A stretch of DNA of 63,307 bases, counting the filler, from Basidiobolus ranarum (taxonomy: Eukaryota): assembly GCA_040143965.1 (NCBI GenBank). It is 10 parts of 10 records of this genome, joined end to end, with 100 filler letters (N's around TTAATTAATTAA, not from the genome) between each part and the next. Parts side by side here need not be neighbours in the genome. Positions count along the whole stretch, not along the records: positions 57,084 to 63,307 come from JASJQH010008248.1; 9 more parts are not named here. One strand, 5' to 3'. Shown one piece after another: positions 6,256 to 63,307 of the stretch. The position numbers and the translations under genes were made by a program. Every line of letters starts with the position of its first letter. Within the stretch, counting starts at the first letter, position 1. The notes below the pieces were generated by a model. The model ran no database searches. It saw only the letters and a program-made list of their open reading frames with translations, and was not told the origin of the DNA.

Positions 6256-6355
6256 NNNNNNNNNNNNNNNNNNNNNNNNNNNNNNNNNNNNNNNNNNNNT
6301 TAATTAATTAANNNNNNNNNNNNNNNNNNNNNNNNNNNNNNNNNNNNNNNNNNNN
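6256..6355. other. Artificial contig linker (44 N + TTAATTAATTAA + 44 N); identical linkers at 12609, 18959, 25304, 31648, 37991, 44326, 50656 and 56984
   Basis: Nine identical 100-bp spacers with stops in all six frames; the intervening contig lengths decrease monotonically. Confidence 0.98.
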
Positions 6356-24365: not shown

Positions 24366-27300
24366 GAAGTTAAATCAGTGACTGAGGCTGGTACTAGTGT
24401 ACACATGAAAGGTCGTAGTGGAATGGAATGATGTTTGTAAAATCATCATTGAATATGTTCTTCAGACACTGTTCCGGTTGCGCCCAGTGGGGCTGAGAAA
24501 TCAAGATGGCTCCGTAAAATGGCAAGTCGATGCAATCGGAGAATTCATATCTCTTGAAATATGCTACACCAAACCATCATATTTGTGAATATCTCTTAGC
24601 CAACTGTAGTCGCAAGATGCCTCCAATACCAAATACATGCAACCCTTTATCTCCAATCCCAAATAGCTAACCCTATTCACCGTTAGCCAATTTCAATGCT
24701 ATTGGCTTGGAACTAGTGCTATATTTACCAAATATGAATTCTGACCAGAAGGATTAAGCTTCACCCTGGCTGATTAAAATGATGGTTGCAGTTAACACCT
24801 GTACTTGGTTGCAGAAACATGACTTTATCTGATTATGTTAACTGACCACTAAAAAGATATCTTTCAAACTCATATGAATATTAATCCCCTTGCAATTTCT
24901 TTTATATTTCGCCAAGAAGCACAATAATTCCGGGATTTTTTGCTACCATTTCGAGATGTAATTTCTGCTATTCTTGACTTGTATCATTGTATTGTAATCC
25001 TCACTTTCAAAGTAATGAGTACCCTACCATAGGTCATGTTGTAGGAGCTATCAGCTGTGATATGGATATCTTCCAGTATTCATTTGATTCAATGGTATCA
25101 TGAAACTTACAAATGTGTATATAAAGTCTCATTTAGTACTGATACCTGTGTTGCTGCCAGAATCACAGCCAGCATATAGGGAAAAGTATAAAATACCATA
25201 GAGGGTAGCTTATTATCTCATAGGCTGTTTAGAAAGCAGAATTTATTTTGTTACTTTAAAGTACAACTAAGGTGCAACCTCAAGAAATTAACTTGTAACA
25301 AATNNNNNNNNNNNNNNNNNNNNNNNNNNNNNNNNNNNNNNNNNNNNTTAATTAATTAANNNNNNNNNNNNNNNNNNNNNNNNNNNNNNNNNNNNNNNNN
25401 NNNCGATCATTGTTCCTCAATGAAAAGATTTTTTTTTCGCAATCATGATTATACAGCTATACTTTGGTGACCACTGCCACATCGTTATGCTCAAGGCTCA
25501 AATGGCTTATCCAAAAATGACTCTTAATTACATTCACATTGCTGAATGGTGTAACTATGTAGCTATTTGTTTAAGCTGTAGAACTTAAAAGTGCAAAACG
25601 TGGTGTATTCTATCAGGCTACTAGGTTATGTTGGGCTTTCCTTTTGGAACCATATAGTTAAAGTCATTATTTGACATGACTAGTAAACCAAGTTAAATTG
25701 TTCTTTTGTGACTACTGAAATCATATTTAGGATGGCTGCTAAATGATTAATCTAACCCTCGTAGTTGGAATATTTGTTTTCTCTATCAGGCCGAGGTAAT
25801 AAGATTGCTTAGATAACTTTTGAGGCTCTGAGGTTCGAAAGCCTCACAGATACCTCTAGAACCATTGTAATGTAATCTCGCTTCTGCTTTTCGATTTCTT
25901 TGGGAACTAAGTTTGTTAGTGTGGTACACCATACCAGGTCATCTGAAACGACATTGAGTCAAGTCGGCCTGAGTCTGGCGTAACTTGGATTAGCGGGAAT
26001 TGAAGAGACTACTTCTTTCAATTTGAGGAAAAACCCTGCCGAAAGTGGATGGGAGTGTGAGAATGAGAGTGCGAGTCTGGTTTTGTGATAATTAGTATGT
26101 TTTGGGGAATATGACTTAGGTCTAAGTAGATTAACCTATGCGGAGTTCAGTCAAATCTTAAACATGTTGTGATAAATAATAGTAAGTTCACCAGGATTGT
26201 GGCCAAAGCCATTCAAGTGTTACAATGTTTCTCAGAACCTTCGAATTCAAATTCTCAATAATATTGATGATTAAGCAATTATCAGAGGAGAGGATCGGAG
26301 AATTCAAGACTCAAGTAGTTCATTGGATGGCGATATATTTTCCCGGGATCGCACGCACATGTTAGGAGTGGGATCTTAAAGGCAATGGCCAGCACATCCT
26401 TTGCCAGTGGAGCTATAGCCTATCATGAGCAAAATTTGTCCCAAGACTCAATATCCCCCAAGTTATATCCAGAACCTATTTGCCATAGATTTAACCAGAT
26501 AAGGAATAGGTGATAACAGACTTGTAACTAATACGGGATAGTGGCTAATATAACATGACTGCGAGATACATTATACATCATTTAAACAATACCTCCTAGA
26601 TCTTTGGTAGAGCAGCTTGGGCTGGATAGTAAAGAACATCCCAATTGTATTCGGTCACTTGGATCCCAGGATGAATGTGACCTGGTAATTTCTAAAAAAG
26701 GGCCTAGATAATATTGACTGCCTAAAGCGGGAGAGGGAGGAATAGAATGGCACAATTGTATCAGAGGAACAATGTAGCTTGAATCATCCTAATCTATCGC
26801 AACATCTCTACTCAGCTCAAAAGCACGGATAGCAGCGAAGTTGCGACATATTGGAGGAGTCTCTCATCAGTAATGGTAACTTCAGGGAACTGGCCCCTCC
26901 CTTCGTTTCTTTGCTTGTGATAACGACGGTTTGCCCGACACGCAAGCCTGATTCTGAGATAATCTAGTAACAATCAGGGTTTGTAATAGGGGCTTTTACT
27001 GCTCAGAGGTTATATAGAGGCAGTGAAGTAGGACCATGTCTTTGGGAGAACAAGTGAATAAAGGTGGGGTACACCAGAAATGGGGCTGCTGTACATGCAA
27101 CATTTTGCCACCGATTCTGATCGGCTCATTTAGAACTATATCAAGTCCTTACGAAAACGGCGCGTAGTTCCACAAGCATGGTGAACCATCTTGGGGTGGA
27201 TTTCTCTTTTTATCAAGATATCGTTCTTACTCTATGATAATGGAGGATCATTTAATTTCCTAGGTTTAGAATTCCCTCATCTTCAGAATCATGCAGTAGT

Positions 27301-31647: not shown

Positions 31648-31747
31648 NNNNNNNNNNNNNNNNNNNNNNNNNNNNNNNNNNNNNNNNNNNNTTAATTAAT
31701 TAANNNNNNNNNNNNNNNNNNNNNNNNNNNNNNNNNNNNNNNNNNNN

Positions 31748-37990: not shown

Positions 37991-39316
37991 NNNNNNNNNN
38001 NNNNNNNNNNNNNNNNNNNNNNNNNNNNNNNNNNTTAATTAATTAANNNNNNNNNNNNNNNNNNNNNNNNNNNNNNNNNNNNNNNNNNNNGGCCCCTGCA
38101 CAAGGATGACACGTAAATCTTGAGTGGACACCTCTTCGGAGGAAATTTTTTTATATATCCTCCACAGTTATTGGATGATTTCTACTGCTCCCAATCAATT
38201 ATGGTTTTGGAAAGAAATTTTTCTGTCGTTAGTGAACTCTATCTCAAGCAAGCGCACGATCCGAAATTTCTGATACATTGACACTTTATGGAGATAAATG
38301 GTATTCAGTAGTTCAAGTAATAATATGCATACTCGATTTCACAGTGATAGCTATGCTTCCAGTGGAAAATGGAATATTTTGCAAGTGTTTGCACGATTTG
38401 CACTTGATATTTTATTGGATTCCAAATCAATATTGATTCTGGTGTTAAAAATGCTGAAACAGAACAGGATGTATAAGAGCGTGGGAAATAGTTTGAAGTT
38501 GATATTCCTTTTTGCGTATGAATAAAGATGTTTTATAAAGTCCTCTCGAGTAAATATCTCTGGCAGTATGACTAGTACCAAAAGTTAGTTTAGAAGTTGT
38601 AGTAGTGGATGTCTTGGTACCCTCCACTGCCAAAATGCTCAGAGTAATGGCAGTCATAGGTTGATTTAACTGTATAGCATATTGGGCCATCTTAGCTAGT
38701 TCCTAACTAGTATTAATATACATAATATATAAATAAATGGTATCCCATAACCAATTTCTCGAGAAAATAGATTTATAATGATCACCCAGATCACTTACTT
38801 CAATCAAGCCTAATGATGATCTTAAATAGCAAAAGTCAAGCTCAACAATCTGATCTTCGATTTGATGTGAATTCATTTTCTGAGGGCATGGTTTCTTCAT
38901 GGTTTCTGCCTGGTTTCTTCATTCATATACACATCAAGAAGTAATCTATAAATATCAAAAGTATAAATTTACCAACCAATGGAGATTCACTTTAGTCTGA
39001 GGCTCTGTTCACTCTAAGTATGCTAGAGATAGGAAACAAGGACTGGTGATCCTGTCTACTACAATTGTGATTTGCGTTGTGATTTGTGTACATGTTTATA
39101 CCGAAAGTTTCTAAAATCAATGAATTTGCATAATTCTATCCCATTTTGATCAGAAGTAATGAAATTATGGGATTTGTTCTGAGTGCGTATAAGCCTAGTT
39201 AGAATTGACTAATAGGATATGATATGCATGAACCCTAGCGTAGGTAAATACATACATAAATAGTGAAGAACATCTCACTGCTCAGCACCTCCTCCTTCCT
39301 AAACCGTCATATCATA

Positions 39317-40423: not shown

Positions 40424-41555
40424 TTAACAAAAGAATGACCAGCTAGTGCAACGATTCATGAAATTACAGCACTCTCCTTCTGGACAAACGATTACTGGGT
40501 TACCCGAATCTCGACAGTTACCATTGGTAGAGATTATCGTGGTAGTTGGTGGAGGTACTGTTGTGGTGGGAGGAGGAGACTTCGTAGTGGAATTGCTGGA
40601 GGTAGAGCTACTAGTCTTGGTAGGAGTCACTGTAGAAACATTAGGTGAAGTTGTTGAGCTGGTCGTCTTGCTGGTGGTAGATTTGGTAGTCCTCTTGCTT
40701 GTAGTGGGCTTGGTAGTGATCGTCTTGCTTGTAGTGGGCTTGGTGGTGGTCGTCATGCTTTTAGTGGGCTTGGTGGTGATCGTCTTGCTTGTAGTGGGCT
40801 TGGTGGTGATCGTCTTCATTGTAGTGGATTCGGTGGGTTTATCAGTAGGACCAGTTGAATCAGCAGTTGAGCTTACAGACTCAGTGGGAGCGACGGTAGA
40901 TTCGTTTGGGTCAATGGTCGAGTTGAAAGATGCAGTGCCGTTATCAGTAGGGCTGGGAGACTCAGTTGAATCGGCAGTTGAGCTAGCGGATTCAGACGGT
41001 ACGTCAGTAGGACTGGAAGACTCTGTTGAATCAGTTGTTGAGCTTGCAGACTCAGTGGGGGTTACTGAAGATTCAGTAGAGTCGGTTGGGTCAACTGTTG
41101 AGCTTGCTGATTCAGTAGGAATGTCAGTAGGACTAGAGGTCTTAGTTGAATCAACAGTTGGGCTTGCAGACTCAGTGGGAGTCACGGTAGACTCAATAGA
41201 CCCGGTTGGGTCAACCGTTGAGCTTGCGGATTCGGAAGAAATGCCAGTAGGACTAGAGGACTCAGTTGAATCAGCTGTTGAGCTTGCTGACTCAGTGGGG
41301 GTTACTGAAGATTCAGTCGAGTCAGTTGGGTCAACCGTTGAGCTCGCTGATTCAGTAGGAATTTCAGTAGGACTAGAGGTCTCGGTTGAATCGGCAGTTG
41401 AGCTGGCGGATTCGGTCGGTAGGTCAGTAGGACTGGAGGACTCTGTTGAATCATCAGTTGAGCTTACAGACTCAGTGGGAGTCACGTTAGATTCAGTAGA
41501 GTCGGTTGGGTCAACTGTTGAGCTTGCTGATTCAGTAGGAATTTCAGTAGGACTA
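40424..41555 (-). CDS. Ser/Thr/Pro-rich mucin-like cell-surface protein with C-terminal Cys (CBM18-like) domain; N-terminus missing
   Basis: 60-bp/20-aa repeats (TESASSTVDPTDSTESSVTP / TESASSTADSTESSSPTDVP), 30-bp TTKPTTSKTI repeats, and C-terminal NGNCRDSGNPVIVCPEGECCNFMNRCTSWSFFC*; the repeat breaks mid-unit at 41555/41556. Confidence 0.8.
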
Positions 41556-43281
41556 TCCACCATCCACTTTGGAAGGCATTAACATGCCAGAAACTAACAC
41601 AAATAATGATGAAGCATTGATCATTTTACCAGATGTGTTCCTTTGTGGCAATAGGGCAAGTGAAGAGATTATAATCCCGAAGTATGTAGTAAATCAATGG
41701 TTGGCCAAGGTCAACCTAAACACCATCAAGACCATCAACATCCAAAATGGCTACCTTGCCCACTATTGAACCACCCTCCACTAGATATTTGGATAGAGTT
41801 TTTACAACAAGGGAATCACAGGCAGAACACCATAATGATTTGTATTTGACCATGAGTACAAGCTATGTAGTTGCTATACAGGTAATGACAAGTAATAATG
41901 TTGCAATATTGCAATTGATGCAGCATTTGGAAGCTACTAGGCAACAGTTAGAGATTTACTCATTAATGATACAAGACCTTCAGAATGCCGCACCTGAGGT
42001 ACAGCAACATGCTGTTCCCCTATCCATTGTCACATGGGATTTCGATCAATCCCACACCACACATATGAACATCACTGTGACAATCTAGCAGAGCAGAATA
42101 TATGTTCGACCATTAAGCCTGCAGAACAACCTGAAATTGCTTGGGCACATGAAAGTAGAAATCTCACAGGAGAACCGGCAAACCAAACAACTTTGATTGT
42201 CAGATCTGCCATCACTTGCTCTGCTGATGATTGTTTAACTTTTTGGAAACTGTGCAGAATCCTGCCCAAAATCACCTGAATTGGAGACAATTGTGGAAAA
42301 CTAAACACCAGGCATTACTCTGAAGGTTCTTAACTTATTTCATGTTGCTTATCTGGGGTCTTTGCAAGAAATGGCAATTGGGCTAGTATAGGCCTATTCA
42401 TGAAGCATATCAAAAATGTACATAATTATTAATTTGGAAAAGTGAGAAAAGCAGGTGAAGAAGTACTCAAGGAGCAGGAAGTTAGTAAACCCAAGGGAAA
42501 AGCAAAGGAGCCAGTGAGTTTAGGCTCTACTGTTGCACTTACCAAATTCTTCAAACTATTACAAAGAACTGCATTTCCAGAGTCAGATATACTTGCAAAA
42601 AAGCTTTATTTCACCAGGGAACCAGGTAAACCACTTCAAAGAGTGCTAAATTTGGAAGTTTTTCCAACACCTGGCTCCTCTCAACAATCCAAAACATTGG
42701 CAAATAAAACTCATAGCACCCCAACCTCAACTGGTACTTTTGAAAGTGTTGAAGTTAGCCCCAAAGCTAAAGGCAAGCAAAAAGCCACACAAAACTGCAA
42801 AGCGCCCTCAGTTGTGTCACACTACAAGGGTGTATGAAAATGGTAAAAGTGCCTGAGGAGTATTTTCAAAAGTATGAAGAGAAATTCACAGCACAAGTAT
42901 GCAGAAAGTGGCTTCCGAAGAAGAACATTCATCTTGACTTTCAGTCTGGTTTTCATCATGCAGCTAGCTTGAAAGAACTTAATACAGAGTGGCACAATAT
43001 AGCAGGGACAATATTGCAACATATCCACCAGATAGCTGGAAGAATGTTGATTCAGCAACATTAATACCATGGTAGGCTTTGATGGAGATGTTGATACAAA
43101 CTTGTATTGGATATGAACTAAACCTTGGGTATGAAGAACTCTATAAGAATATTCAGGAGAATATATTGAAGAAACTAGGAATTTCAAGATGACAAATTAG
43201 TATTCAAGTGATAAATTTGTAAAATATGAGTTACATTTTTTGTACATATGTTGAACTATAGTTTTCTGAGATTGTAGCCAA
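41556..43281 (+). mobile_element. Decayed family U element (unknown ORF)
   Basis: Fragments PETNTNNDEALI, MTSNNVAILQLMQ, MGFRSIPHHTYEHHCDNLAEQN, FPESDILAKKL, QVCRKWLPKKNI and LNTEWHNIAG are colinear with 47484-49110. Confidence 0.85.
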
Positions 43282-44325: not shown

Positions 44326-44425
44326 NNNNNNNNNNNNNNNNNNNNNNNNNNNNNNNNNNNNNNNNNNNNTTAATTAATTAANNNNNNNNNNNNNNNNNNN
44401 NNNNNNNNNNNNNNNNNNNNNNNNN

Positions 44426-47231: not shown

Positions 47232-49130
47232 TACCCTAACAGAAATTTGAGCATTATTATTGTATGAAAAGCATCAGAATTTTAATCCATTTGGGTTGAT
47301 CATTAATTACCATCATATAATCATCAAGTTAGGTTTGATTTTGATAAATTTTTTCAGTTTCAGGAGTGAAATTTTGAGATCTCACAAAATAGTTGTGCAT
47401 GATGGGCTACATTCTCAGAGAACTATGGAAGAACACTTGTGCAAACAACATAACTCAAATTTTACACAATTATCACTAGAACACTAATTTCTCACCTTTG
47501 AAATCCATAGTTTGTTTGATATATTCTCCTCAATATTTTTATGGAATTCTGCACACCCTAGGTTTAACTCATATCCAACAAAAGTTTTTATCAATATCTT
47601 CATCAAAGCCCACCATTGTATTAATGTTGCTGAATCAAAATTGTTACAGCTATCTGGCAGATACCCTGTGATATTGTACCACTCTGTATTAGGTACTTGC
47701 CAGGTATCTGCACCATCAACACCAGACTGAATGTCAAGTTGAATGTTCTTCTTCTGAAGCCACTTTGTGCATACTTGCACTGCATTTTTCCCTTTAAACT
47801 TTTGAAAATACTTGTCAACCACTTTTATTATTTTCATACATCCTTGTAGTGTGACACTACAGAGGGTGCTCAGATGTCTTTGTATGGCTTTTAGCTTGCC
47901 TTTAGGTTTGGGTCTAATTTCAATAATTTGAAAAGCACCAATAGAGGTTGGAAAGCCATGAGTTTTATTTTCTGGTGTATTGGCTTGTTGAGAGGTGCCA
48001 GGTGTTGGATAAACTTCCAAATTAAGCAGTCTACCAATTGGTGTACCTAGTTTGATGGTCAAATTAAGCTTTTTAGCCTGTATATCTAACTCTGGAAATG
48101 CAGATCTCTGTATGGTTTGAAGAATTTAGTAAGTGGGACAGTAGAGCCCATACTCACTGCCTTCTTTGCTTTTCACTGGGGTTTACCAACTTCTTGCTCC
48201 ATGAGTACTTTTCTAGGTGCTTTTCTTTCTTTCCCAAGTTGATATTATGTACATTCCTGAGATTTTTTAGCAATAGGCCTATACTAGCCCAATTTTCATT
48301 TGCTTGAAAAAACCTATGATAAGCCACATGAAGTAAGTCAAGGACCTTCAGAGCAGTGCCTGTTTTCTGGTTTTTTGACAACTGGCTCAAATTGTGGAGA
48401 TTTTGGGCAAGTATGTGCACAGTTTCCAAAATGTTAAACCTTTCATCTTCACAGCAAGTGACAGCAGCTCCGACATTCAGAGTCTTTTGGTTTGCCAGTT
48501 TTCCTGTGAGATTCCTACTTTCATGTGCCCAAGTAATTTTGGGTTGTTGCATAGGCTGAATTGTCCAACATGTATTCTGATCTGCTAGATTGTCATGGTG
48601 ACACCCATATGTAAGGCATGGGATTGATTGAAATCCCATACGAGAATGGATGGAGGGATCAGCTTGTTGCTCTAGCTCAAGTACAGCATTCTGAAGGTCA
48701 TGTATCATTGTTGAGTGACTCTCTAACTGTTGACTTGTTTCTTCAGATTGCTACATTAATTGCAATATTGCAGCATTTTTGCTTGCCATGGCCTGTATAG
48801 CAACTTTGTAGTTTTTACTTATGATAGCATACAAATCATTATGGTTTTCTGCATGCAATTCCCTTGTTGTATTACTTCTAACCAAATTTTCTATGGAGGG
48901 TTGTTCAATAGTTGGCAAAATAGCTATTTTGGCAGTTGATGGTCTTGATGGCATTTCTGTTGAACTTTGCTCTACTATTGATTCACTACATAATTGGGGG
49001 ATTACAATCTCTTCACTTGCACTATTGCTGGAAAGGAACATATCTGTTAAATTAATTAATACCTCATCATTACTTGAGTTAGTTTCCAGATGACTCATGT
49101 GTGATACCATCTCAACTCTGAGGTTTTTGT
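47232..49130 (-). mobile_element. Family U element, most complete copy of the unknown ~540-codon ORF (49110-47484)
   Basis: ORF pieces 48751-49110, 48154-48708 and 47484-48062; the terminus TACCCTAACAGAAATT at 47232 interrupts the transposase remnant. Confidence 0.85.
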
Positions 49131-49135
49131 AGGCA

Positions 49136-50655
49136 CACCCTAACAGAAATTTGAGGATTGTTAATGTAGGAAAACCACCCCAACTTTAATCTATTTGGGA
49201 TTGACCATTTACTTACTGTCATAAAATTGACAAGTTAGATTTAATTTTAATCAATTTTTTTAGTTTCAGGAGTGAAATTTCAAGATCTCACAAAAACTTG
49301 CCCATGATTGGCTACAATCTCAGAGAACTATGGATCAACACATGTGCAAAAAATGTAACGCAAATTTTACATAATTACCACTTCAATGCTAATTTGTCAC
49401 CTTTGAAATCTCTAGTCTCTTTGATATATTCTCCTGAATATTATTATAGAGTTCACCATATTCAAAGTTTAGCTCATACCCAACACAAGTTTGTATCAAT
49501 ATCTCCATCAAAGCCCACCATTGTAATAACATTACTGAATCAACATTGTTCCAGCTATCTGGTGGATACCCTGCAATCTTGTGCCACTCTGTATTAAGTT
49601 CTTCCCAGATATATGCATGGTCAACACCAGACTGAATGTCAAGTTGAATGTTCTTCTTCTGAAGCCAATTTTTGCATACTTGCATTCCATTCTCCATGCA
49701 TACTTTTGAAAATACTCCTCTAGCACTTGGACTATTTTTGAATGTCTTTGTAATGTGATACTACTGAGGGTGCTTTGCAGTGTTTGGGTGGCTTTTTGCT
49801 TGCCTTTAACTTTGGGGCTAATTTCAACAATTTGAAAAGCACCAGTAGAGGTTGGAAAGCCATGAATTTCATTTGCTGGTATTTTAGCTTGTTGAGAGGT
49901 TCCAGGTGTTGGATAAACTTCCAAATTTAGCGCTCCTCCAACTGGTGTACCCAGTTCCATGGTGAAATTAAGCTTTTTTGCCAGTATATCTGACTCTGGA
50001 ATTGCAGATCTTTGTAATGGTGTGAAGAATCTGATAAGTAGGACAGTAGAGCCTAAACTCACTGGCTCCTTTGCTTTTCCCTTGTGTTTACTAACTTCCT
50101 GGTCCTTGAGAACTTCTTTAGCTGCTTTTCTTACTTTTCCAAGTTAATAATTGTGTACACTTTTAAGATGTTTCATGAATAGGCCTATAATATCCCATTT
50201 GCCATTTGCTTGCAAAAGCCCAGGATAAGCCACATGAAAGAAGTCAAGAACCTTCAGAGTATCACCTGGGTTTTGGTTTTTTCACTATTGGCTCAAATCC
50301 AGGTGATTTCAGGCAAGATTCCGCACAGTTTCCAAAATGTTAAACCACTCATCATCAGAGCAAGTGACAACAGCTCTGACATTAAGAGTCTTTTGGTTTG
50401 CCGGTTTTCCTGTGAGATTTCTACTTTCATGTGCCCAAGCAATTTTGGGTCCTTGTGTAAGCTTAATGGTTCAGCACATATTCTGCTCTGCTAGATTGTC
50501 ACGGTGATGTTCATATGTATGGTGTGGGATTGATTGAAATCCCATACAAGAATGGATGGAGGGATCAGCTTGTTGCTCTAGCTCAAGTACAGCATTCTGA
50601 AGGTCTTATATCATTGTTGGGTGACTTCCTAACTGCTGACTAGTTGCCTCCAAAC
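49136..50655 (-). mobile_element. Family U element, second copy abutting the 5' side of the first
   Basis: Terminus CACCCTAACAGAAATT at 49136; ORF pieces 49389-49697 and 49532-50062; cut by the contig end. Confidence 0.85.
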
Positions 50656-51369
50656 NNNNNNNNNNNNNNNNNNNNNNNNNNNNNNNNNNNNNNNNNNNNT
50701 TAATTAATTAANNNNNNNNNNNNNNNNNNNNNNNNNNNNNNNNNNNNNNNNNNNNTGGTTACTGTAGAAAGCAACCTGCTGTGCAAAGCCTAGTGAATAT
50801 CAACCATGATAAAGGCACAAGATGAACTTTAGTTTTTCCTTCTGAGGCCAATGATTGTGCTCTACCTCAATGTTTTGGTAACACTGCTGAAAGTCAAGAT
50901 ACTGTGGAGTTACTACAGCTCTATGACCCAACTGATGTGGGCAGAAATTCCACTTTGGTTGAAACAGTGAGGTGTGGGACAGAAGTGTTAGCTCAAATAT
51001 TCGGTAATAAAGCTTTATCCCACTACAATAGAAACCTTTATTATCCTACTATGACACAGGGTAGAATATCAAGCTAAAAAAAGGATAAAGAATACGGTGT
51101 GATCTTGGATGGTGCCAAGGCCAGAAGCTTTTTTGCTAGCCAAAAGGGTTGCTTATAAAAAGAAATAGCTGAGATTACATGCTCTGAATTGATGCATGAG
51201 TATAAATTCTATGATTAGGTGGCTTAGCTTTGAAGTGCCAATAAGATCACTACTATGCAATAGTGGCTTTGAAGCTTCAAACACATTGGCATCAAATACT
51301 GTTGCAGCTCTGAGCAAAATGTGAAGAGAATTCATTGGTTGGTTACAAATGTTAGCACTACTTGTGTGA

Positions 51370-53969
51370 GCATCTTGAGGTCTTAAATTCCAGTAGTTTT
51401 TGTTCTAAACATGAAATTAAGCTACAAACTACTGAACCTTATACTCCACAGCAAAATGGAGTTGCAGAACATGCTAATAGGACCATAGTGGAGATGGCAA
51501 GATCAGTGTTACATGATCAAAAGTTAGATTGCCAATATTGAGCTGAATCTGTCTCCACTGCAGCCTATATCAAAAACAGATGCCCAACAAGATTGATACA
51601 AAAATCTACATCTTAAAAGCTCTATATGGATCAAACCCAAGTGTGGATCATCTCAGGTTCTTTGGTTGCACAGCATATTGCCTAATTCCAGCTCAAAAAT
51701 GCTCTAAATTGGAATCTAAAAGCGGTAGATGATTATTTCTGGGCTACTGTGATGGATCTAAGGCCTACCAACCACTTGATATCAAAATTCAGAAGTAAAT
51801 TAATTGCAGAGTTGTGATTTTAGATGAAAAGCAAATTTTACACCTTAAATCATAGTTCTTGATCCAGAAAACACAATCAGGACTATTCTAGAAGTATCTG
51901 GCAAAATTCCAGCTGTATCTGAGCCCTATTCAGGCAAAAATCCAGTCAGAATCAAATCAGACAATGATTGAGGACCCAGGAGATCATCCAGAAGGAGTAA
52001 TAAGCCAGGGAACTGGTGGAACACTTGCAATCATGATGTATATACTTATTCAAAATTCTGTGATGAGTCACAGACTCTAGATCAAGCTCTGGTGTATCCA
52101 GAATCAAAATGATGGAAAATGCAGTGTCTGATGAGTTTTCTTCACTTCAGGACAATAAAATGTGGGTTTTAAGTCCTCTACCATCAGGGAGAAAGCCAAT
52201 AGGGTGCAATTAGGCATACAAAGTCAAAAATTGAGCCAACAGAAGCATATAAAGGTACAAAGCAAGATTAATTATAAAGGTTCTTCCCTGACTCTAGGAG
52301 AAGATTTAACAAACCTTTGCTCCAGTAGCTAAGTTGAGCTTCAGTAGATCAATCCTGCCACTCAGCTATCCATAACCTTGATTTACATCAAACGGGTGTA
52401 AAAACAGCCTTTCTGAATGGAAATCTAGAAGAGATTTAGATGTAGCAACCAGATGGATTTGTAGGCTCAAAACACCCTGATATGGTCTGTATACTGCAAG
52501 AATTGCTCTGTGAACTCCAGTAAGCACCTTGGGCATAGTACAGCAAGATTTGTAATAACTGGAAATCCAAATATGCACAGCAGATCACAGTACTTCCATT
52601 AACACAACTGGAAAAAGGAACCTTATCTTGGCACTAGATGTGGATGACCTGATCAAAGCCACAAATAATCTACAAGCACTTAATCAGGCAAAACCAGATT
52701 ATCAAGCCAACTTCAGAAGATATTGGTGAATTCAGTTATTCTCTTGGATTCAACATCAAGAGAGATAAATGCAATCAGAAATAATGCTGAATTAGTCAAA
52801 AATATATCTTAAACATGCTAAAATGCCTAAACATGAAGACTAGCAAGCCTGTATCAACACTAATAGATCCTAATGTGAAATTGATCAAAATTTTATCTGA
52901 TTTGGCCCAAAATCACTCAAATCAAAGCTAGAAGTTCACTTATCAATCCATGGTGGGTAGTTTATGTACACAATGGTTATAATACATCCAGACATTGCTA
53001 TGGTAGTGGGAACTGTGAGCCAATATCTCAAAAATCCAGAATATGAGCACATAACTGCAGTGAAGCAAATATTCAAGTATTTGAGAGGTACAGTATATCT
53101 AGTTCTGTAACACTGCCACTCCTGATACACAAATTTTTGAATATTACAGTGATGCAGACTGGGGAAAAAACCTTGTTGATAGAAGATCAACAACTAGGAA
53201 CACTTTTCTCTATGGTAATGGAGCCATAACTTGGAATAGTAGAAGCAACTAACCATTGCACTTTGCACTATGGAGGCTGAGTATATGGTTGCCTCTGCTA
53301 CTACACAAGAAGCTATGAGGCTAAGGAAGTTATTTCTAGAGTTAGGGTACTTGTAAAAATGTGCTATTTTTGTATTTGAAGATAATCTAAGTTGTATTTC
53401 ATCAGCTAAAAGCCCTACTTATCATGGTGGAACAAAGCACATAAATGTAAGGTATCATTATATTGGAGAAGCAATAGATAATGATATAATTGAACTTGTC
53501 TATTGCCCTACTGAAGAAAAGATAGGTGACATCTCAACCAAATCTTTAGCTAAAGCACAACTTGAATTATCAAGATATAGGTTAGGTTTAAGAGAGATAC
53601 AAAATATTTAGTTGAGTGGGAATGTTGAAATTGGGTAAATAGCATTTCATTGCTTAGTAGTTAGTTTATTCCTATTCTGATTATTTAGCACTCTGCCATT
53701 CAAAAACATGTGTTTATTGCTCTAATATATAGAAATATTGATAGGATCATATTTACCAATTTTCACTGTTTTCTCATAACTTCTCCAAATCACTTCAAAT
53801 TTTTACCCATGCTTAAGAGGCATGCTTGTCAAGATCTAAGCATGTCCATTAGTCCTATTTCATAGCAAACTACTAATAGGATAAATTCAAATCAACAAAA
53901 CTTAAGAGTACAATTAACAAATCCAAATCTTGTCCAAAACACTTCCAAATCCCTCAAACACTTTTATCA
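51370..53969 (+). mobile_element. Decayed Ty1/Copia element: integrase, RT, RNase H, PPT and 3' LTR family B (53623-53969)
   Basis: PYTPQQNGVAEHANRTIVEMAR integrase motif; RT/RH remnants; GAGTGGGAA PPT followed by TGTTGAAATTGG...CTTTTATCA. Confidence 0.92.
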
Positions 53970-54917: not shown

Positions 54918-56230
54918 AAGTGCATGGTGCCTGCTAGGAGGCTCTTGCTCCAGCTCTTCCCCTGTGGCATTATCATCTTATGCTTATGGCTAATATCAAG
55001 TTTGATGTTAGGCTGACTATTTGGTGAATAGATATCAGTGAGCATGTTGATATCTGGCTAGAATCTTGATGGTAAAGACAGGAAGTTCAGTGTTGTATTT
55101 GGATAGTTATAATATGCATGCCTGATAGAGTAAACTTCATTGATTTGACAAAATCTACACCACATAAGTGCATTGTGTACACTAAAACCTCCTAGTTTAT
55201 GCATGGCAGGAATGCCATCAATACATACAATGATAGTACCTTTAGAGAAATATTCACCCATCTGAACCCCAGCAGATAACCATTCCAATTCTGCTATCAA
55301 AGGCATCAAGAAGCCATCTATAAGCACTGGTGATTTAGGTCCTGATATGATGAATAGTATCAAATTATTATGACTCTGATACCATCCAGAAGGATGAAGA
55401 TTGAAAATTAATAGAAAATATTGGCTATCAAGCCCTTCCAACAGTAGATTTGTTTGGTCAGAAACGATCCAGAGGCAATGCAAATGCATGCTCATGTGTG
55501 TTCTCAAAGAAACCTGGATTTTTCAGGTGTTTGTATTGCTGTCCATCAAGAATACTGCTAATTCCATCATACTGATGGTGAGTGCTTTGGTATTGGATCA
55601 ATGATCTACATTTGGGAGATTTCCTCAAAACTCTAAAACTTCACAATGGGAATTAACAGTATGCCAGCCAAATGGGAACAATATTTACCTGATTCAGTGA
55701 TTGCCAATTGAGCACAAACAGTACATGACTTCAGTGTATTCAGATCACTGATGAAAGCTATACAACCATTTGGACATGAGGGTAGTTTAATTACTGAAGG
55801 AATACAAGTCATATGATAGACAAGTGCTTTCTGCTTGCACCAGCTATGTGGCAGGTAACAGGTGCCAATCAACTGAGGTAGAAATGTAAGAAAACCAATA
55901 AACACCTGATTGCCAAAATAGGATTGAACTCTCCACTCCACAATAATCCAAGCTGCTTTCTTTACTATAAGTGTTATGAATGGACCAATTATTACCTATC
56001 AAAAAGAGTTCACAACCAAACTATTGTCATCTTCTGTAACTTCTGATGTACTACCATCAGCACTGAATAACCAAGGTTCCCATCATACATCAAGTCCTCA
56101 AAGTTGCCAAGACTTACTGGTTTAACAAAAGTTGAATTTGTACCAACATCATTCTGGTCATACAACTGTGGTAACTCCATGGTATCTTGATTTTTGGCAG
56201 TTTTACCAATACTGTAAGGCTAAGCAAAGC

Positions 56231-56983: not shown

Positions 56984-57083
56984 NNNNNNNNNNNNNNNNN
57001 NNNNNNNNNNNNNNNNNNNNNNNNNNNTTAATTAATTAANNNNNNNNNNNNNNNNNNNNNNNNNNNNNNNNNNNNNNNNNNNN

Positions 57084-57910
57084 GGCTACCAACATGCACC
57101 CTGTGTAAGAAACCTTGATGATACAAGATTGACAATTGGGTACACTTCTCTCTATGGTGATGAAGACATAACTTGGAATAGTAGGAAGCAACCAACCAAA
57201 GCACTTTCCACAACAGAAGCAGAGTATATGGCTGCCTCTGTTACTACACAAAAAGCTCCATGGTTGAGAAAGTTATTAACAGACTTAGAAACACATGCAA
57301 AAACATGCTATTACTGTGCTTGATGATATTCTAAGTCAAATCACATGAGCTAAAAATCCTACATTTCAAGATAGAACAAGACAAATATATATATTAGGCA
57401 ATGTTTTCTTAGAGAAGCAATAGAGAATGATAAAATTCAACTGGTCTATTGCCCGGCTGAAAAAAATTGCTGACATCTTGACCAAGCCTTTAGCTATAGC
57501 AAAACTTGAAACTTTAAGACATAAGTAATGTTTAAGAGAAATACAAATAATTAATTGAGTGGGAATGTTGAAGTTGGGTAAAAGCAACTCAATATTAAAT
57601 AGTTAGTTTATTTTTATTCTGATTACTTAGCACTCAACTCTGCCATTCAAAAATATGTGTTTATCGCTCTAATTAATAGAAATGTTAATTAGATCACTTT
57701 TCCCTATCTTTACTATTTTCTCAAATCTTCTCCAAATCATCTCAAATATCCACCCATGCTCAACAGGCATGTCTGTTTTGATCTAAGCATGCCCAACAGT
57801 CTGGTTTAGTAGTAAACTATGAGTAGCACTTATTCACTGTTAAGAAAACCTAAGTGTCTAGGTCACAAGTCCATGTGTGGTACCAAACAAATCCAAATCC
57901 ACTGTACACT
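57084..57910 (+). mobile_element. Copia RNase H end, PPT and LTR family B (from 57566)
   Basis: ITWNSRKQPTKALSTTEAEYMAAS; IADILTKPL; GAGTGGGAA followed by TGTTGAAGTTGG. Confidence 0.85.
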
Positions 57911-57944
57911 TTAGTTATTTATATGAGTCATTATGGGCTAAATT

Positions 57945-58930
57945 GTATGAAATTTTGATTTATTTCACATTGGGATCCATAGGGGCAAATACAGGCTTGC
58001 TATACTTATGTTGAGGCATTATATTATCCCCAAGATGTATCTGGACTGATTCAGCTTGATTTTCTACTTGGCTTTACTTCTCTTGATTTGGATCACAAGA
58101 AAATAACTCAAATCACCCATATCAGTCATCTGAAATTGCTTGATAAGCTACTTTTGGCCCATATTGGGGGCTTCTAGATCATTTGTGGCAATGATCAAGT
58201 CGTCACTATATAGTGCCAAAATAAGGATCCTATATCTGGTTGTTTTGATGTGAACATTGTAATCTGCTGTGAATATTTAGAACTCCAGTGATTCCAAATA
58301 GAAATCCATCTTGTTATACCATGTCCTGGGTGCCTGCTTGAGTCTATACAGCAATATTTGCAGCTTACAGAACCAATCAGGGTATTTTTAGTTGATAAAT
58401 CCATCTGATTATTCTACACAGCTCTCTTCTTCTAGAGTTCCATTCAGAAAGTCTGTGTTTACATTCCTTTGATGTAAATCAAGGTTATGGATTGCTGAGA
58501 GTGCAAGGATTGATCTGATGGTTCTAAACTTAGTGACTAGAGCAAAATTTTTATTAAAGTCCACTCCTGGAGCTTCAAAATAGCCTTTTTGAACTAATCT
58601 CACTGCATTGGTGGTTGAAGCCTTAAAACCCATGTATTGTTGTCCTGAAGTGGAGAAAACTCTGAATAGAATTTAGAAGCAGTCTCATTGGGCATCTGTT
58701 TCTGATATAAATTGCAATGGAGACATATACAGCTCAATATTAGTTATCTAACTTTTGATCATAAAACATGAATCTTATCATCTACACTATGGCCCTATTG
58801 GCACATTCTGCAACACTGTTTTGTTGAGCAGTATCAGGTTCAGTAGTTTGTTGCTTCATGTATTGTTAGGAACAAAAAGCAGCCAAGTCTTAAGAGCAGT
58901 AATTTCAAATTTATCACTACTAGTACCCTT
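57945..58930 (-). mobile_element. Internally deleted Copia RT/integrase remnant
   Basis: RLVQKGY...PGVDFNKNFALVTKFRTIRSILALSAIHNLDLHQ...FLNGTLEEE. Confidence 0.8.
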
Positions 58931-58969
58931 ATTTTATGTGCTGATTATTAATCTCCATTGTTTTGTTGT

Positions 58970-61010
58970 GCTTGAATAGAGCTAAGGCTTTAGCTTTTGA
59001 TTTGGGAAAGAATACGCAATATATATCTTGTACAAATATTTTGCTTAGATAACATCTCAAAGTTAAAGGGTCTAACCAATGTCAATCTTATCCCCCCTAT
59101 CACTGTCCAAGATACCATATCTGGCTTTTATTTACTCATATCAGGCCTCTCCTTACCTTCTGACATGTTTGTATCTAGTCTTGTCACATTTTAGAGAGAT
59201 GCAAGGATTCTGGGAACAATAGGGATTATAAAAAAAGCAAAAACATTTTGTCAAAGATTTATTTATGGCAACATTATATGATGTTGCACAATATCTGGAG
59301 AGATTGTGAAGAAGAAAGTTTCAAAGAATATTCTTGATAGCACCAATATAGACACTATATATTCTTCTCATATTGTGGAAGCATTGGAATTTCTATCAGA
59401 GATATATCACTCATATAAAAGTTTACCTATTTCTTTTTCCAGTTTACTTAGAGATAAAAAAGGCTTAGTAACTATAGTAGAATATGGGGCAAAAGGGACA
59501 AGAGAATAACATGAAATAAATATAGAGTTGGGACAACAGTATATATTTGGAAAAAAAGTTGAAGAGGGTTTTATAAGAAATTCTGATGTTAAATGGTTAA
59601 ATCCACTAGAATTTTTTGTCCACCAAATGTTTGCAAGAGAGGGAATTATAAATATCTGAAATAATCTTGACATCACAGGCTATTTGAATAGATGATCCAG
59701 ACAACTCTTGGCCAATGTTGAAGTTAAATATAATGGCACAATAGGTAGCCTAAATATGGTATCAAGCTTTTAAGAAACTCCTCTGCAGTATTAACCATTT
59801 TCTTCATCTATACAAATAACTTGTCCTAATTTATAACTGTGCCCTCTACAAATTATATCTGCAAAAACAAGTTTGGACAGGTACCAATTGGTGTTTGTCT
59901 ATCACAAAGTAGCTTCAACTCTTCCATATTGGCCACACTGTGCTTGAGGACTATCTGGGTAATTATAGACAAGAGTTTCTTTCAGAGTCCTATTATATGA
60001 AAAATGGTTGACTATATGATAATCATATGCCAGTTCCAGTATATCCTTATTACACTGCATCAATTGCATTATTGCAGCATTATTGCTTGTCATGGCTTTT
60101 AAACAGTTTCATGGTTCAATTGTTGAGATGCAACACCATTTGACATTTCATTGTTTTACCAGCTACAGACTTTACAATGGTGGTAGACATCTTGTGAACA
60201 GTACCTTGTCTTCTGGTAATATATGATATCTCTTTTCATCTAAATGTAAATCAAATATTTGGATATCTACCAGGTTTTGCAACAGATCATCAGAGTATGT
60301 TTTACCATTCATGACTAGTACATTTTCCAACATATACTTTAATACTATATTTTTGATATATGAAACACATGTCTCAGACTATTGGACAAATCTTAATTTT
60401 ATATCCTCTGGATTTAAGTTTGCCCCAAATAATTGTTTTGTGATAAAATTTGTGGGAAAAGGGGTGGTTAGGTATGACCTGCCTTTTGGATTATCTATTT
60501 TCGGTGTAGACTTTTGGGGTATCATATTACTAGGAGAGGCAATTATTGGATCCAATAACATATCATGAATTGATTCTTTGGTACATTCTGATACCCTGCT
60601 AATGAAAGTCATAAACTCTGGATCTTTCCTAAGAATGTCTAAAGTAAAGCATGCATCCAAATATCTGGAATATACAATCCATGTAAGCTGTATTCTTGTT
60701 AGACTGCTGTTTTTTCTTAGCACCTTAGTTTCATATGGTGTCAACAGCTTTTCCTTTTCTGGCAAACCTCCATTTAGTAAAATAGGTCTGGACACAATTT
60801 TACATAGTCCTCTTCTTTAGAATTAATTATAAAATATTTTAATATTCAATGATATCTGTCATACTTTGTGATAGACAACTCCATCTAGGTTTTTATAGAC
60901 TCTGGTATGTAAACATTTTCCTGCTTTACCACACTTGTTCTCTAACAAATTAGTAATATTTCCAAATCAAGTCTTGACATATATAATGCAACCAGAAGAA
61001 TTAGTTGAAC
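58970..61010. pseudogene. Fragmented, compact two-barrel (beta/beta'-like) RNA polymerase of probable linear-plasmid or viral origin
   Basis: + strand ~59460-59750 reads through stops as IVEYGAKG...LGQQYIFGKKVEEGFIRNSDVKWLNPLEFFVHQMFAREGIINI*NNLDITGYLNR*SRQLLANVEVKYNGT, matching Rpb1/beta' regions F-G. Weaker beta-like and beta'-like pieces lie on the minus strand. Confidence 0.78.
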
Positions 61011-61906
61011 AAAATCACCCTGATCAGATCTGTAAACTGCAAAATTGCAATATGGACCCCAGCAAGCATGCAGGGCTTGGTACAACAAGTTAGATACCTG
61101 TTTGGAGTCACTAGAGGCCCAAAGATTCATTGCAGAGCATAGTTTTTACATTAAAGCAGCTGGTAATTGGATCCTTATGATTACACTCTATGTGTATGAC
61201 TTGATCCTATTCATAAATGACCTAGAAGCACTTGATCACACAAAAAGCAGCCTATATAACCAGTTGCAGATGACAAATACTAGTAAATTCAGTTTTTTCC
61301 TTGGATATTAAATCATAGGAGATAGACCCAATCCAAAAATCATGCTAAATCAGTCCCGATAAATTGTAGACATGCTAAAATGCTTCAGCATGGAGAATGG
61401 CAAGCTTGTACCAACACCAATGGATCTCAATATGAAAATAAATAAAATTTCAGCAAATATGGTACAAAATGAATTAAAACAAAGCCAGGAGTTCTCTGAG
61501 CAATCCATGTTGTGTATTTTGATGTATCAATTGGTTGGAAAATGTCCAGACATTGGTGTAGCAGTGGGAGTTGTGAGCCAATAACTCAAAGTCCAGGATC
61601 TGAGCAAAATATCATAGAAAAAAAAATTGGATACCTGAGAGTAATTGTAGATCTGGTTTTAGATTATTCTGGCACTCCTGATGTGCAAAATTTTGATGGC
61701 AACAGTGAAGCAAACTGGAGAAGAAAACTTGATGATAGAAGATTACCAACTGGGCACACATTTCTGTGTTGTAATGTTGCCTTAACTTGGAACAGTAGGA
61801 TGCAACATACCATTGCACCTTCCACTACACAAGCATAGCATTTGGCTACCTACACAAGAAGCAAAGTAGCTGAGAAGGGTACTTACAGACTTAGGATACA
61901 TGCAAC
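61011..61906 (+). mobile_element. Decayed Copia RT/RNase H remnant
   Basis: RAWYNKLDTCL...ITLYVYDLI...; CPDIGVAVGVVSQ; interrupted by an LTR at 61907. Confidence 0.85.
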
Positions 61907-63307
61907 TGATAAGAGTGTTTAGGGGATTTGGAAGTGTTTTGAACAAGATTTGGATTTGTGAATTAGATACAGAAGATTTATTGAATTGAATATGTCCTAT
62001 TTATAGTTTACTATAAAATAGGACTATTGGATGTGCTTAGATCATAACAAACATGCCTGTTAAGCATGAGTGAATATTTGATGTGATTTGGAGAAGTTTT
62101 GAAAAAATAGTGAAAATTGGTAGAAGTGATCTAATGGATATTTCTCTCAACTAGAGCAATGAACACATGTTTTTGAAAGACATAATTGAATGCTACACAA
62201 TCAGAATATGAATAAACTAACTACTAAATAACAAGCTGCTATTTACCTAATTTCAATGATCCTGCTCAACTCATCATTTTGTATTTCTCTTAAACCTAAC
62301 TTATATCTTAATATTTCAAATTGTGCTTTGGCTAAAGATTTGGTTAAGATATCAGCCATCATTTCTTCAGTAGGGCAATAGACAAGTTCAGTTATATCAT
62401 TCTCTAATGCTTCTCTAACAAAATGATGCCTAATATCTATATATTTTGTTCTATAATGAAATGTAGAGTTTTCAGCTAATGAAATACAACTTTGATTATC
62501 TTCAAATACAGTAATAGCACATTTTTGCGTGTATCCTAAGTATGTAAATAACTTTCTTGACCACATAGCTTCTTGTGTAGTTGCAGAGGCAGCCATATAA
62601 TCTGCTTCTGTAGTGGAAAGTGCTACAGTTGGTTGCTTCTTACTAATGCAAGTTATGGCTCCATAACCATAGAGAAAAGTGTATCCAGTTGTTGATCTTC
62701 CATCTTCAAGGTTTCTTCCCCAGTCTGCATCACTGTGGCCTGCAAAATATTGTGCATTAGGAGTGGCAGAGTATTCCAGAACTGGATCTACAATTCCTCT
62801 CAAATATCTGAATATTTGTTTTACTGCATTTTGTGCTCAGATCCTGGATTTTTGAAGTATTGGCTGACAGTTCCCACTGCCACAGCAATGTCTGGACATG
62901 TTCCAACCATTGTATATATTAAACTACCAACCATGGATTGATAAGGGAACTCCTGGCTTTGATTTGAATCATTTTGGGCCACATAAGACAAAATTTTAAT
63001 TAATTTCACATTGGGATCCATTAGTGTTGATACAGGGTTGCTATTCTCCATGTTAAAGCACTTTAGGAATTCTAGGATGTATCTAGTCTGATTCAGCATG
63101 ATTTTCAGAATGGGTTTATCTGGCTTGATTTGGATTCTAAGAAAATAACTTAATTCACCCATATCAGTCATCTGAAATTGGTTTGATAAGCTGCTTTTTG
63201 TCTGATTAAGTGCTTCTAGATCATTTGTGGCTATGATTAAGTCATCCACATATAGTGCCAAGATAAGGATCCTATTTCCGGTTGTTTTGATGTAAATACT
63301 GTGATCT
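61907..63307 (-). mobile_element. Copia RT C-terminus, RNase H and 3' LTR family B (61907-62258)
   Basis: LYVDDLIIA (RT YVDD), YQSMVGSLIY, HSDADWG...VALSTTEADY...EDNQSCI...MMADILTKSL; the best-preserved copy in the window. Confidence 0.93.

Follow-up and report, generated by a model that had tools for sequence, protein, structure and literature searches.

Remains of a dead, probably viral gene for RNA polymerase amid Copia transposon debris in the fungus Basidiobolus ranarum

Pseudogenes that stem from NCLDVs (nucleocytoplasmic large DNA viruses) were already known from fungi, as remarked in Heneghan et al. 2026 (PMC13348850); what we take from this and the other papers cited below holds for the sections of them that treat these elements. 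Among the closest described systems are the fundsalphaviruses, endogenous Pithovirus-related NCLDV-like elements that Gong, Zhang & Han 2020 (Virus Evol 6:veaa008, PMC7017919) describe, after screening 1,006 fungal genomes with DNA polymerase (DNAP), from 14 species, Basidiobolus meristosporus and B. heterosporus among them. These elements contain premature stops and have retrotransposons nearby, and the genes common among them are D5, a D6/D11-like SNF2 helicase, an S-adenosylmethionine-dependent methyltransferase, RPB2, RPB5, and the largest subunit of RNA polymerase (RNAP) in two parts, RP1n and RP1c (PMC7017919). A literature search found no second paper that uses the term "fundsalphavirus." The virus-like elements (VLEs) of yeasts also encode a reduced RNAP, in which the polypeptide K2ORF6p joins beta (residues 1-693) to a short beta' part, from which the beta'a13-a14 rim helices and most of the clamp are missing (Sykora et al. 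2018, PMC6211774); VLEs have been extended to Zoopagomycota and Mucoromycota (PMC13348850). Here, we describe a 740-base dead remnant of a viral RNAP gene amid Copia transposon debris in Basidiobolus ranarum (assembly GCA_040143965.1), found in a 63,307-nucleotide stretch of DNA that we refer to as the window. An association of Basidiobolus with Nucleocytoviricota-like DNA was published in 2020, and the fossil is one more, very eroded footprint of it.

The fossil lies on the + strand at 59036-59770 and is a single frame of 245 codons, open except for point stops. It corresponds to the C-terminal 245 codons of RP1n, the N-part of a split RNAP largest subunit, a protein of about 600 amino acids (aa) whose C terminus falls just after the bridge helix. 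A profile built from an alignment of 14 compact RP1n proteins (A1) matches it with 107.6 bits in hmmsearch (E 2.9e-35, positions 354-603 of the 605 in the hidden Markov model [HMM]). An Rpb1/beta' match at this place had been noticed in a first-pass annotation made from the sequence alone, and it is real and longer than was claimed. Translated with X for each stop, the + strand frame across 59282-59800 shows the motifs that had been named there. The relative P0002 matches the window in tblastn at 6e-28 across 59030-59749, and 69 of 75 compact-family proteins match the same stretch. Vestiges of Rpb1 domains 3-4 can be recognized, together with the GAKG motif, GQQ..GKK, and the bridge helix; the fossil thus has the bridge-helix region (the start of Rpb1 domain 5), flanked by GAKG and GQQ..GKK, by which an Rpb1/beta' subunit is known. 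Pfam alone is marginal, as Rpb1_5 aligns over its positions 2-50 at 24.9 bits, under the cut-off of 28.5. In PDB, the best phmmer match is Pol II Rpb1 (1.5e-8), followed by archaeal Rpo1N (chains at 5e-7 to 2e-4), Pol III, Pol IV, and Pol I, and 34 of the 36 matches at E<=1 are RNAP largest-subunit sequences.

The two ends of the fragment differ in their state. At its 3' end, a TAA at 59771 stands at the position of the family's own C terminus, a few residues past the bridge helix; the final residues, SSF, line up with the C-terminal ...SF or ...QF of P0003, P0006, P0010, and the protein of locus L241, and the same TAA lines up with the C terminus of P0012. We therefore consider the 3' end of the gene to be intact. 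At the other end, the match begins at HMM position 354, just past the catalytic NADFDGD motif, which was not found, and every frame upstream is blank: NADFDGDEMN and the preceding 350 codons gave no match in any frame with the profile, with P0002 in tblastn, or with the 75 family proteins. As the catalytic motif is absent, the fragment cannot encode an active enzyme. The five premature in-frame stops (listed in Table 1) make it a dead fossil. There are no frameshifts and there is no CpG in 738 nucleotides (nt), and one of the stops, TGA 59693, is opposite the conserved second Arg of GYLNRR, consistent with a change from CGA to TGA. The relic presumably has no function at present. The first-pass annotation had also drawn attention to some 20 residues missing between GKR/GKK and GF. 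The GKK..GF loop of the fossil is truly short, by about 20 residues, and so it is in 9 of the 14 A1 members, as read from the alignment, but it is long in the nearest relatives P0012 and P0004 and intermediate in P0002. Because the loop varies within the family, it is not diagnostic.

The fossil belongs with a family of small proteins. An exhaustive HMMER search over 1.84e9 representatives returned 356 matches at E<=1e-3, of which 15 reach E<=1e-10, and the top matches are proteins of about 440-750 aa to whose extreme C terminus the fossil aligns, not full-length Rpb1; P0002, for example, has 607 aa and is 44% identical to the fossil (2.4e-23). Of 20 matches scanned with Pfam, 15 (443-890 aa) have an Rpb1 N-part of reduced build, composed of domain 2, a reduced domain 4, and then only the first ~55 residues of domain 5, which are the bridge helix; in several of these proteins, domains 1 and 3 are weak or were not detected. 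Full-size Rpb1 domains occur in the other five (P0018, P0021, P0024, P0030, and P0033), which have 832-988 aa or are without domain 1. In the A1 alignment, family members begin with the Rpb1 N-terminal zinc ribbon and not with a beta part. A search for an Rpb2-like part in 155 rows (the 150 top-ranking HMMER matches and 5 others) found no row that has one; beta and beta' are separate proteins in the compact RP1n lineage. At least 80 clusters match the A1 profile at E<1e-119, on contigs of up to 97 kb. Only two members are named, both of them Basidiobolus ranarum annotations (P0004, which is KAK9759605.1, with 121 aa and 43-52% identity to the fossil, and P0373, the K7432_016063 protein, with 447 aa), and the remainder come from metagenomes and IMG/VR. 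Other searches did not reach the family: a word-based protein search with P0001 gave 616 candidates, none at E<=1e-3, viral-contig scans found no relative with P0007 and generic giant-virus Rpb1 only, at 25-31% identity, with P0009, and a metagenome-contig scan with A1 returned generic patterns (best E, 1e-51), none of them of the compact family. P0412 was rejected as a relative, having merely 28 bits to the fossil. It is a single open reading frame (ORF) of 1443 aa that runs from an Rpb2 C-terminal half (residues 94-586) into an Rpb1 N-part (643-1406) ending past the bridge helix, which reflects either a genuine beta-beta' fusion or else a gene call that ran through.

Similarity scores and phylogeny agree on where the fossil belongs. 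In phmmer, it scores 106.9 bits with P0002, 73.5 with P0004, and 70.9 with P0012, against 35.0 with the cellular largest subunit of Basidiobolus meristosporus and 32.9 with yeast Rpb1. A quick IQ-TREE analysis (LG+C20+F+G4; 75 rows by 251 columns) places the fossil as sister to P0002, with a Shimodaira-Hasegawa-like approximate likelihood ratio test (SH-aLRT) value of 87, inside a compact set of 29 rows. A branch with an SH-aLRT of 99 separates this set from the 46 other rows, which are Pol II sequences bearing a C-terminal domain (CTD) and other Rpb1 with full-length domains (of archaeal type by their Pfam build, the rows being nameless). The aligned residues thus show the putative RP1n fragment to fall phylogenetically in the compact viral RP1n family, apart from cellular polymerases. 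To this extent the first-pass annotation is borne out: the tree, an approximately unbiased (AU) test, and the scores set the locus apart from cellular polymerases, as a fossil of a non-host, virus-type multisubunit RNAP in transposon-rich fungal DNA.

The same annotation had gone further and read the locus as a scrambled fossil of an apparently fused beta-beta' polymerase from an endogenized linear plasmid or virus, similar to elements of the pGKL2 type, on the strength of three additional minus-strand pieces (b, c, and d). Eight kinds of test gave no polymerase signal for these pieces. Piece c (59165-59090, minus strand) is antisense inside the real + strand fossil, and a portion of piece b, 60010-60102, belongs to a short dispersed repeat, with copies on other contigs at ~41.9 kb and ~48.75 kb; a 40-nt repeat is common to 48751-48792, 60055-60096, and 41885-41923. 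None of the nine pieces other than the fossil matched an RNAP family in Pfam at E<=10, a 215-aa piece had no PDB match at E<=10, the A1 family profile, run with every filter disabled, found nothing in the five other frames, and hhalign of three pieces against A1 gave probabilities of 0.5%, 0.15%, and 0.1%. In tblastn, the six frames of 59771-61100 reached best E values of 0.17 and 0.57 against 80 viral loci, and the 75 compact RP1n proteins, which include the Basidiobolus ranarum protein P0373 spanning the N-terminal two-thirds, gave a single chance-level row against 59790-61010 (+ strand; E 0.97). A set of 203 ORFs from four relative contigs (loci L241, L161, L001, L003, and L179), compact viral Rpb2 among them, matched the window only at RP1n and at one TFIIS zinc ribbon elsewhere; the latter is host-type and lies on a different contig, at 7668-7808. 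A 144-aa minus-strand ORF (60379-60813) matched bacterial clusters only in the ESM Atlas (score, 1524), which is uninformative. Two readings made by eye on the minus strand were rejected, as the match of DKVLFTR / QGTVHKMS / LHLNN to RQPSLH had no profile, hhalign, or tblastn support and NNAAIMQLM as the helix after NADFDGD was negative in the same tests, its motif belonging to the short dispersed repeat.

No beta-like (Rpb2) sequence was detected by Pfam or tblastn anywhere in the window on either strand, and what is present is just one contiguous, single-frame beta'-N fragment. Taken with the lack of an Rpb2-like part in the rows searched and the separate genes in L241, this leaves no evidence for a fused beta-beta' polymerase, for scrambling, or for a pGKL2-type plasmid.

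The genes that surround RP1n in relatives provide further information about the source. On a 35-kb contig (L001), RP1n is accompanied by an SNF2/D6-D11-type helicase, UDG, a DUF5757 protein, and Rpb5. A 52-kb contig (L241) encodes an 891-aa Rpb2 as a separate gene, besides DUF5757, RP1n, a helicase, and a MutS of the MutS7 type that bears an HNH domain at its C terminus; MutS7-type MutS is otherwise known as a marker of mimivirus relatives. A 40-kb contig (L179) combines RP1n with DUF5757, a D5 primase-helicase, and a capping enzyme that has an N7-methyltransferase. The IMG/VR record L161 (the record behind L002) is 17,169 nt long, bounded at the very ends by 145-nt terminal inverted repeats (TIRs), and encodes a family-B DNA polymerase (PolB, classical PF00136), a weak capping/methyltransferase protein, an SNF2 helicase, RP1n, UDG, and a TFIIS-like ORF, together with a 1138-aa protein with a B-lectin domain, a 283-aa ORF, and repeated intergenic motifs. 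No Rpb2 or capsid gene was recognized in the whole L161 record: the 1138-aa protein was rejected as a divergent Rpb2 because it carries the B-lectin domain, and Pfam and PDB give no support for the 283-aa ORF as RP1c. L161 is a complete-looking linear element that resembles a helper-plasmid-like module built of Nucleocytoviricota-type parts. Nucleocytoviricota hallmarks in relatives are thus D5 (L179) and PolB (L161), and no capsid, A32, or VLTF3 gene was seen in the stretches of relatives examined (the whole record in L161 only). The PF00136 polymerase, the unfused subunits, D5, Rpb5, TFIIS, and MutS7 in these relatives point to Nucleocytoviricota-like viruses.

Comparison with described systems places the fossil close to some of them and at a distance from others. 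It shares with the fundsalphaviruses, as Gong et al. describe them, the host genus Basidiobolus, a split subunit 1, premature stops, and adjoining retrotransposons, and its relatives carry D5, SNF2 helicase, a methyltransferase/capping enzyme, RPB2, RPB5, and DNAP. It differs in that it is a 3' fragment of RP1n only, with no DNAP nearby, and it is likened to them by description, not by sequence. DNAP was the sole probe of that screen, by its published account, so a locus such as this one would escape it. The contigs with compact RP1n (P0002, P0012, L241, L161/L001, and L179) have the same C terminus just past the bridge helix and the same reduced domains 3-4, with 33-45% identity to the fossil over 100-260 residues, and the fossil nests within them; they have intact ORFs on contigs of 17-97 kb, however, whereas the fossil is a cropped, stop-ridden copy in fungal repeats. 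K2ORF6p and K2ORF7p of pGKL2, in the published description, likewise form a reduced multisubunit RNAP of Nucleocytoviricota-like origin with a split that parts beta'a15 from beta'a16; the VLE beta' is cut between a15 and a16, as are the fossil's family and some archaeal subunits (PMC6211774). In contrast to K2ORF6p, with which it is compared by description, the fossil's family is unfused and still has domains 3-4 as well as the zinc ribbon at the N terminus. A split shortly past the bridge helix is also found in archaeal Rpo1N (A') and in some Nucleocytoviricota Rpb1, and Marseillevirus and Lausannevirus have two beta' records each in Sykora et al. (PMC6211774). The N-parts of these archaeal and split viral subunits, at 830-1000 aa, differ from the compact family (~550-750 aa), and their domains 1, 3, and 4 are of full size.

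The surroundings of the fossil bear on how it came to its present state. Its sole physical context is the last part of the window (57084-63307; 6,224 nt; JASJQH010008248.1), which is rich in Copia. The first-pass annotation correctly placed the fossil between Copia remnants, as Copia homology extends to 58878 on its left side and starts again, on its right side, at 60988. In blastn, the left edge (58667-58878) has 80% identity to 51397-51608 and 71% to 5979-6192, a region of another Copia copy that bears the SH3_retrovirus domain, and matches to 52445-52506 and 18185-18243 start from 60988 on the right. The observed/expected ratio of CpG is bimodal across the window, at 0.04-0.06 in the transposon-only parts (1, 3, 8, 9, and 10) and 0.40-0.75 in the gene-bearing parts, and TpG plus CpA is raised in the former, a pattern that indicates strong repeat-directed CpG decay. 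Classical repeat-induced point mutation was rejected as its cause, since the depleted dinucleotide is CpG and the ratio (CA+TG)/(AC+GT) is raised to 1.5-1.6, not lowered. The flanking Copia DNA is as AT-rich and CpG-free as the fossil, so AT-richness is not a distinguishing mark of the latter.

We conclude that the relic is probably an endogenous viral element of one gene, the RP1n of a split, size-reduced RNAP of Nucleocytoviricota type and of the fundsalphavirus kind. Viral DNA with a miniature split RNAP would have made its way into the nuclear genome of a fungus like Basidiobolus, where Copia insertions or deletions may have taken away the 5' 350 codons, including NADFDGD, and any adjoining viral genes. 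Repeat-directed cytosine methylation and deamination by the host (CpG to TpG/CpA) would then have killed the remainder by point substitutions, the same decay presumably having stripped CpG from the adjoining Copia copies.

Several points weigh against this conclusion. The searches with the 203 relative-contig ORFs in tblastn found no other viral gene or Nucleocytoviricota hallmark in the window, so the virus-type assignment depends on a single gene fragment, and the likeness to fundsalphaviruses derives from gene set and published description, not from named sequences. We infer integration from a 6.2-kb contig, for which an assembly chimera is possible. Forcing the fossil to group with six CTD-bearing rows cost 56.3 log-likelihood units (p-AU 0.0155), with a group that was picked after the tree had been seen and rows that are not monophyletic in the free tree; the terminal branch of the fossil is very long (2.87), in a tree made by a quick method. 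No major capsid protein was seen in the examined parts of any relative, and in view of the TIRs of L161, in which no capsid gene was seen, the source may not be a "giant" virus. A BFVD fold search with the AlphaFold model of P0002, which is mediocre (predicted local distance difference test score, 70.2; template-modeling score, about 0.4), ranked a Pithovirus LCPAC104 RNAP subunit first at 3.9e-30, followed by a nameless entry, Bodo saltans virus, and an iridovirus, all within four orders of magnitude. The label "Pithovirus-like" is accordingly weakly supported by the predicted fold.

The points about capsid genes and TIRs lead to another possible source, a small linear plasmid-like element with TIRs and a Nucleocytoviricota-type replication and transcription module that includes an unfused compact RNAP. 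The relic would in that case be an endogenized linear plasmid in the wide sense of the first-pass annotation, but not of the pGKL2 type. We regard this as unlikely, although L161, itself a member of the compact RP1n family, has the size, the repeats at both ends, and the gene set (with no capsid gene recognized) that such an element would have. Its module functionally equals that of the yeast helper plasmids as these are described (PMC6211774, PMC13348850), and NCLDV capsid homologs are reported in none of 40 non-zoosporic fungal genomes in the relevant section of Myers et al. 2026 (PMC13533422). However, L161 is distant from the fossil, as it lies in another subclade on a very long branch and its best match to the window is 4.9e-8, and without Rpb2 it cannot be self-sufficient. 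An RP1n near-identical to that of L161 sits on the 35-kb contig L001 with more genes, and other family members are on contigs of 52-97 kb with Rpb2, D5, and MutS7. That the compact-RNAP lineage as a whole consists of small, capsid-less or multipartite TIR elements and not of giant viruses is similarly doubtful. If it were true, fungi would harbor an independent lineage of plasmid-like nature, their second, and it might be a living intermediate that connects Nucleocytoviricota with the helpers of yeast killer plasmids.

Capture and scrambling in the nucleus of a VLE-type cytoplasmic linear plasmid with a fused beta-beta' RNAP, such as pGKL2, seems very improbable to us. The end of the subunit right past the bridge helix coincides with the reported split point between K2ORF6p and K2ORF7p (PMC6211774), and the fungal groups from which VLEs are now reported include Zoopagomycota and Mucoromycota (PMC13348850). 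Yet such a source is opposed by every result on beta-like sequence given above, on either strand of the window, in pieces b, c, and d, and in the family, whose members start with a zinc ribbon, and AT-richness, being shared with the flanking Copia, does not speak for it. In the fossil, moreover, ~190 residues separate the position of the catalytic site from the bridge helix, a stretch that aligns with domains 3-4 of Rpb1 in its relatives, whereas the VLE RNAP is reported to lack beta'a13-a14, which makes the linker there a short one. The polymerase of the relatives is a classical PF00136 enzyme, whereas those of VLEs are protein-primed (pPolB; PMC13348850), and Basidiobolus does not occur in the cited sections of that VLE survey. 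Scarcely any more credible is an origin within the host or the assembly, as a pseudogene of a Pol I, II, or III largest subunit, a chimera, or a contaminant. Pol II Rpb1 does lead the PDB matches, and the contig is short. Against a host pseudogene are the 35 bits of the Basidiobolus cellular subunit compared to 107 for P0002, the tree and the AU test, and the native stop past the bridge helix, which is found in no cellular eukaryotic Rpb1; against a contaminant, the CpG depletion is the same as that of the flanking Copia, which argues for long residence in the genome. The preferred reading thus remains that of a viral RP1n relic.

Coordinates are collected in Table 1. The ten parts of the window fall strictly in length (6255, 6253, 6250, 6245, 6244, 6243, 6235, 6230, 6228, and 6224 nt), and the window looks like size-sorted contigs chained by a linker with stops in six frames. 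Because it is chained from separate contigs, features in different parts are physically unlinked.

Table 1. Positions of the fossil, of the features around it, and of other features in the window (one entry refers to a relative contig)
Feature	Position	Strand	Remarks
Nine identical spacers	6256-6355, 12609-12708, 18959-19058, 25304-25403, 31648-31747, 37991-38090, 44326-44425, 50656-50755, 56984-57083		
Artificial spacer N44-TTAATTAATTAA-N44	56984..57083	.	Left end of the fossil's contig
Copia fragment, 5'-truncated (reverse transcriptase and integrase end)	58007..58878	-	Pfam RVT_2, E 8.7e-37 at 58007-58603
157 nt between Copia end and fossil start	58879..59035	.	Expected site of NADFDGDEMN and upstream codons
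RP1n fossil, C-terminal 245 codons	59036..59770	+	Profile search, tblastn, phmmer
Premature stops, n=5	59192..59695	+	TAG 59192, TGA 59279, TAA 59507, TGA 59657, TGA 59693
Native stop TAA	59771..59773	+	At the position of the family's own C terminus, just past the bridge helix
1.2 kb without recognizable gene	59774..60987	.	Holds pieces b and d; 1 CpG in 1215 nt
Copia fragment, 5'-truncated	60988..62250	+	Pfam RVT_2, E 2.8e-15 at 61042-61423
Further Copia copy, inverted, to contig end	62243-63307		Inverted repeats
Tandem repeat array	40428-41579		Open on both strands
Two diverged copies of an ORF set	47484-50143	-	No Pfam match
Transposase_21 fragment	55061-55522	-	E 3.6e-8
MutS7-type MutS with C-terminal HNH domain	L241:18152-20905	-	Relative contig

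Elsewhere in the window, the gene-bearing parts encode TFIIS, a universal stress protein, a Forkhead protein, diphthamide synthase, a chitin-binding protein, and an acyl-CoA dehydrogenase whose gene has no introns. Two Basidiobolus meristosporus proteins match this dehydrogenase with 92% and 88% identity, and its chytrid and glomeromycete counterparts do so with ~72%. The duplicated ORF set, whose copies share "NLEVYPTPGTSQQA..." and "KNWLQKKNIQLDIQSGVD...", comprises ORFs of 123-213 aa in CpG-depleted DNA and is probably an unclassified repeat. The tandem array has 30/60/120-nt periods, 384 open codons on both strands, and strong GC skew; it is likely to be a repetitive Ser/Thr/Glu-rich coding repeat, or noncoding. 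The transposase fragment, of tnp2/CACTA type, also lies in CpG-depleted DNA.

The fossil has no bearing on the origin of fused beta-beta' polymerases. Its significance is of a different kind. Relics of this sort exist that a DNAP probe does not reach, and counts based on DNAP are thus underestimates. The fossil also illustrates how CpG-directed decay by the host can kill captured genes by substitutions alone. Finally, through the fossil a large family of miniature split RNAP subunits came to light on viral contigs, among which is a complete-looking 17-kb linear element.

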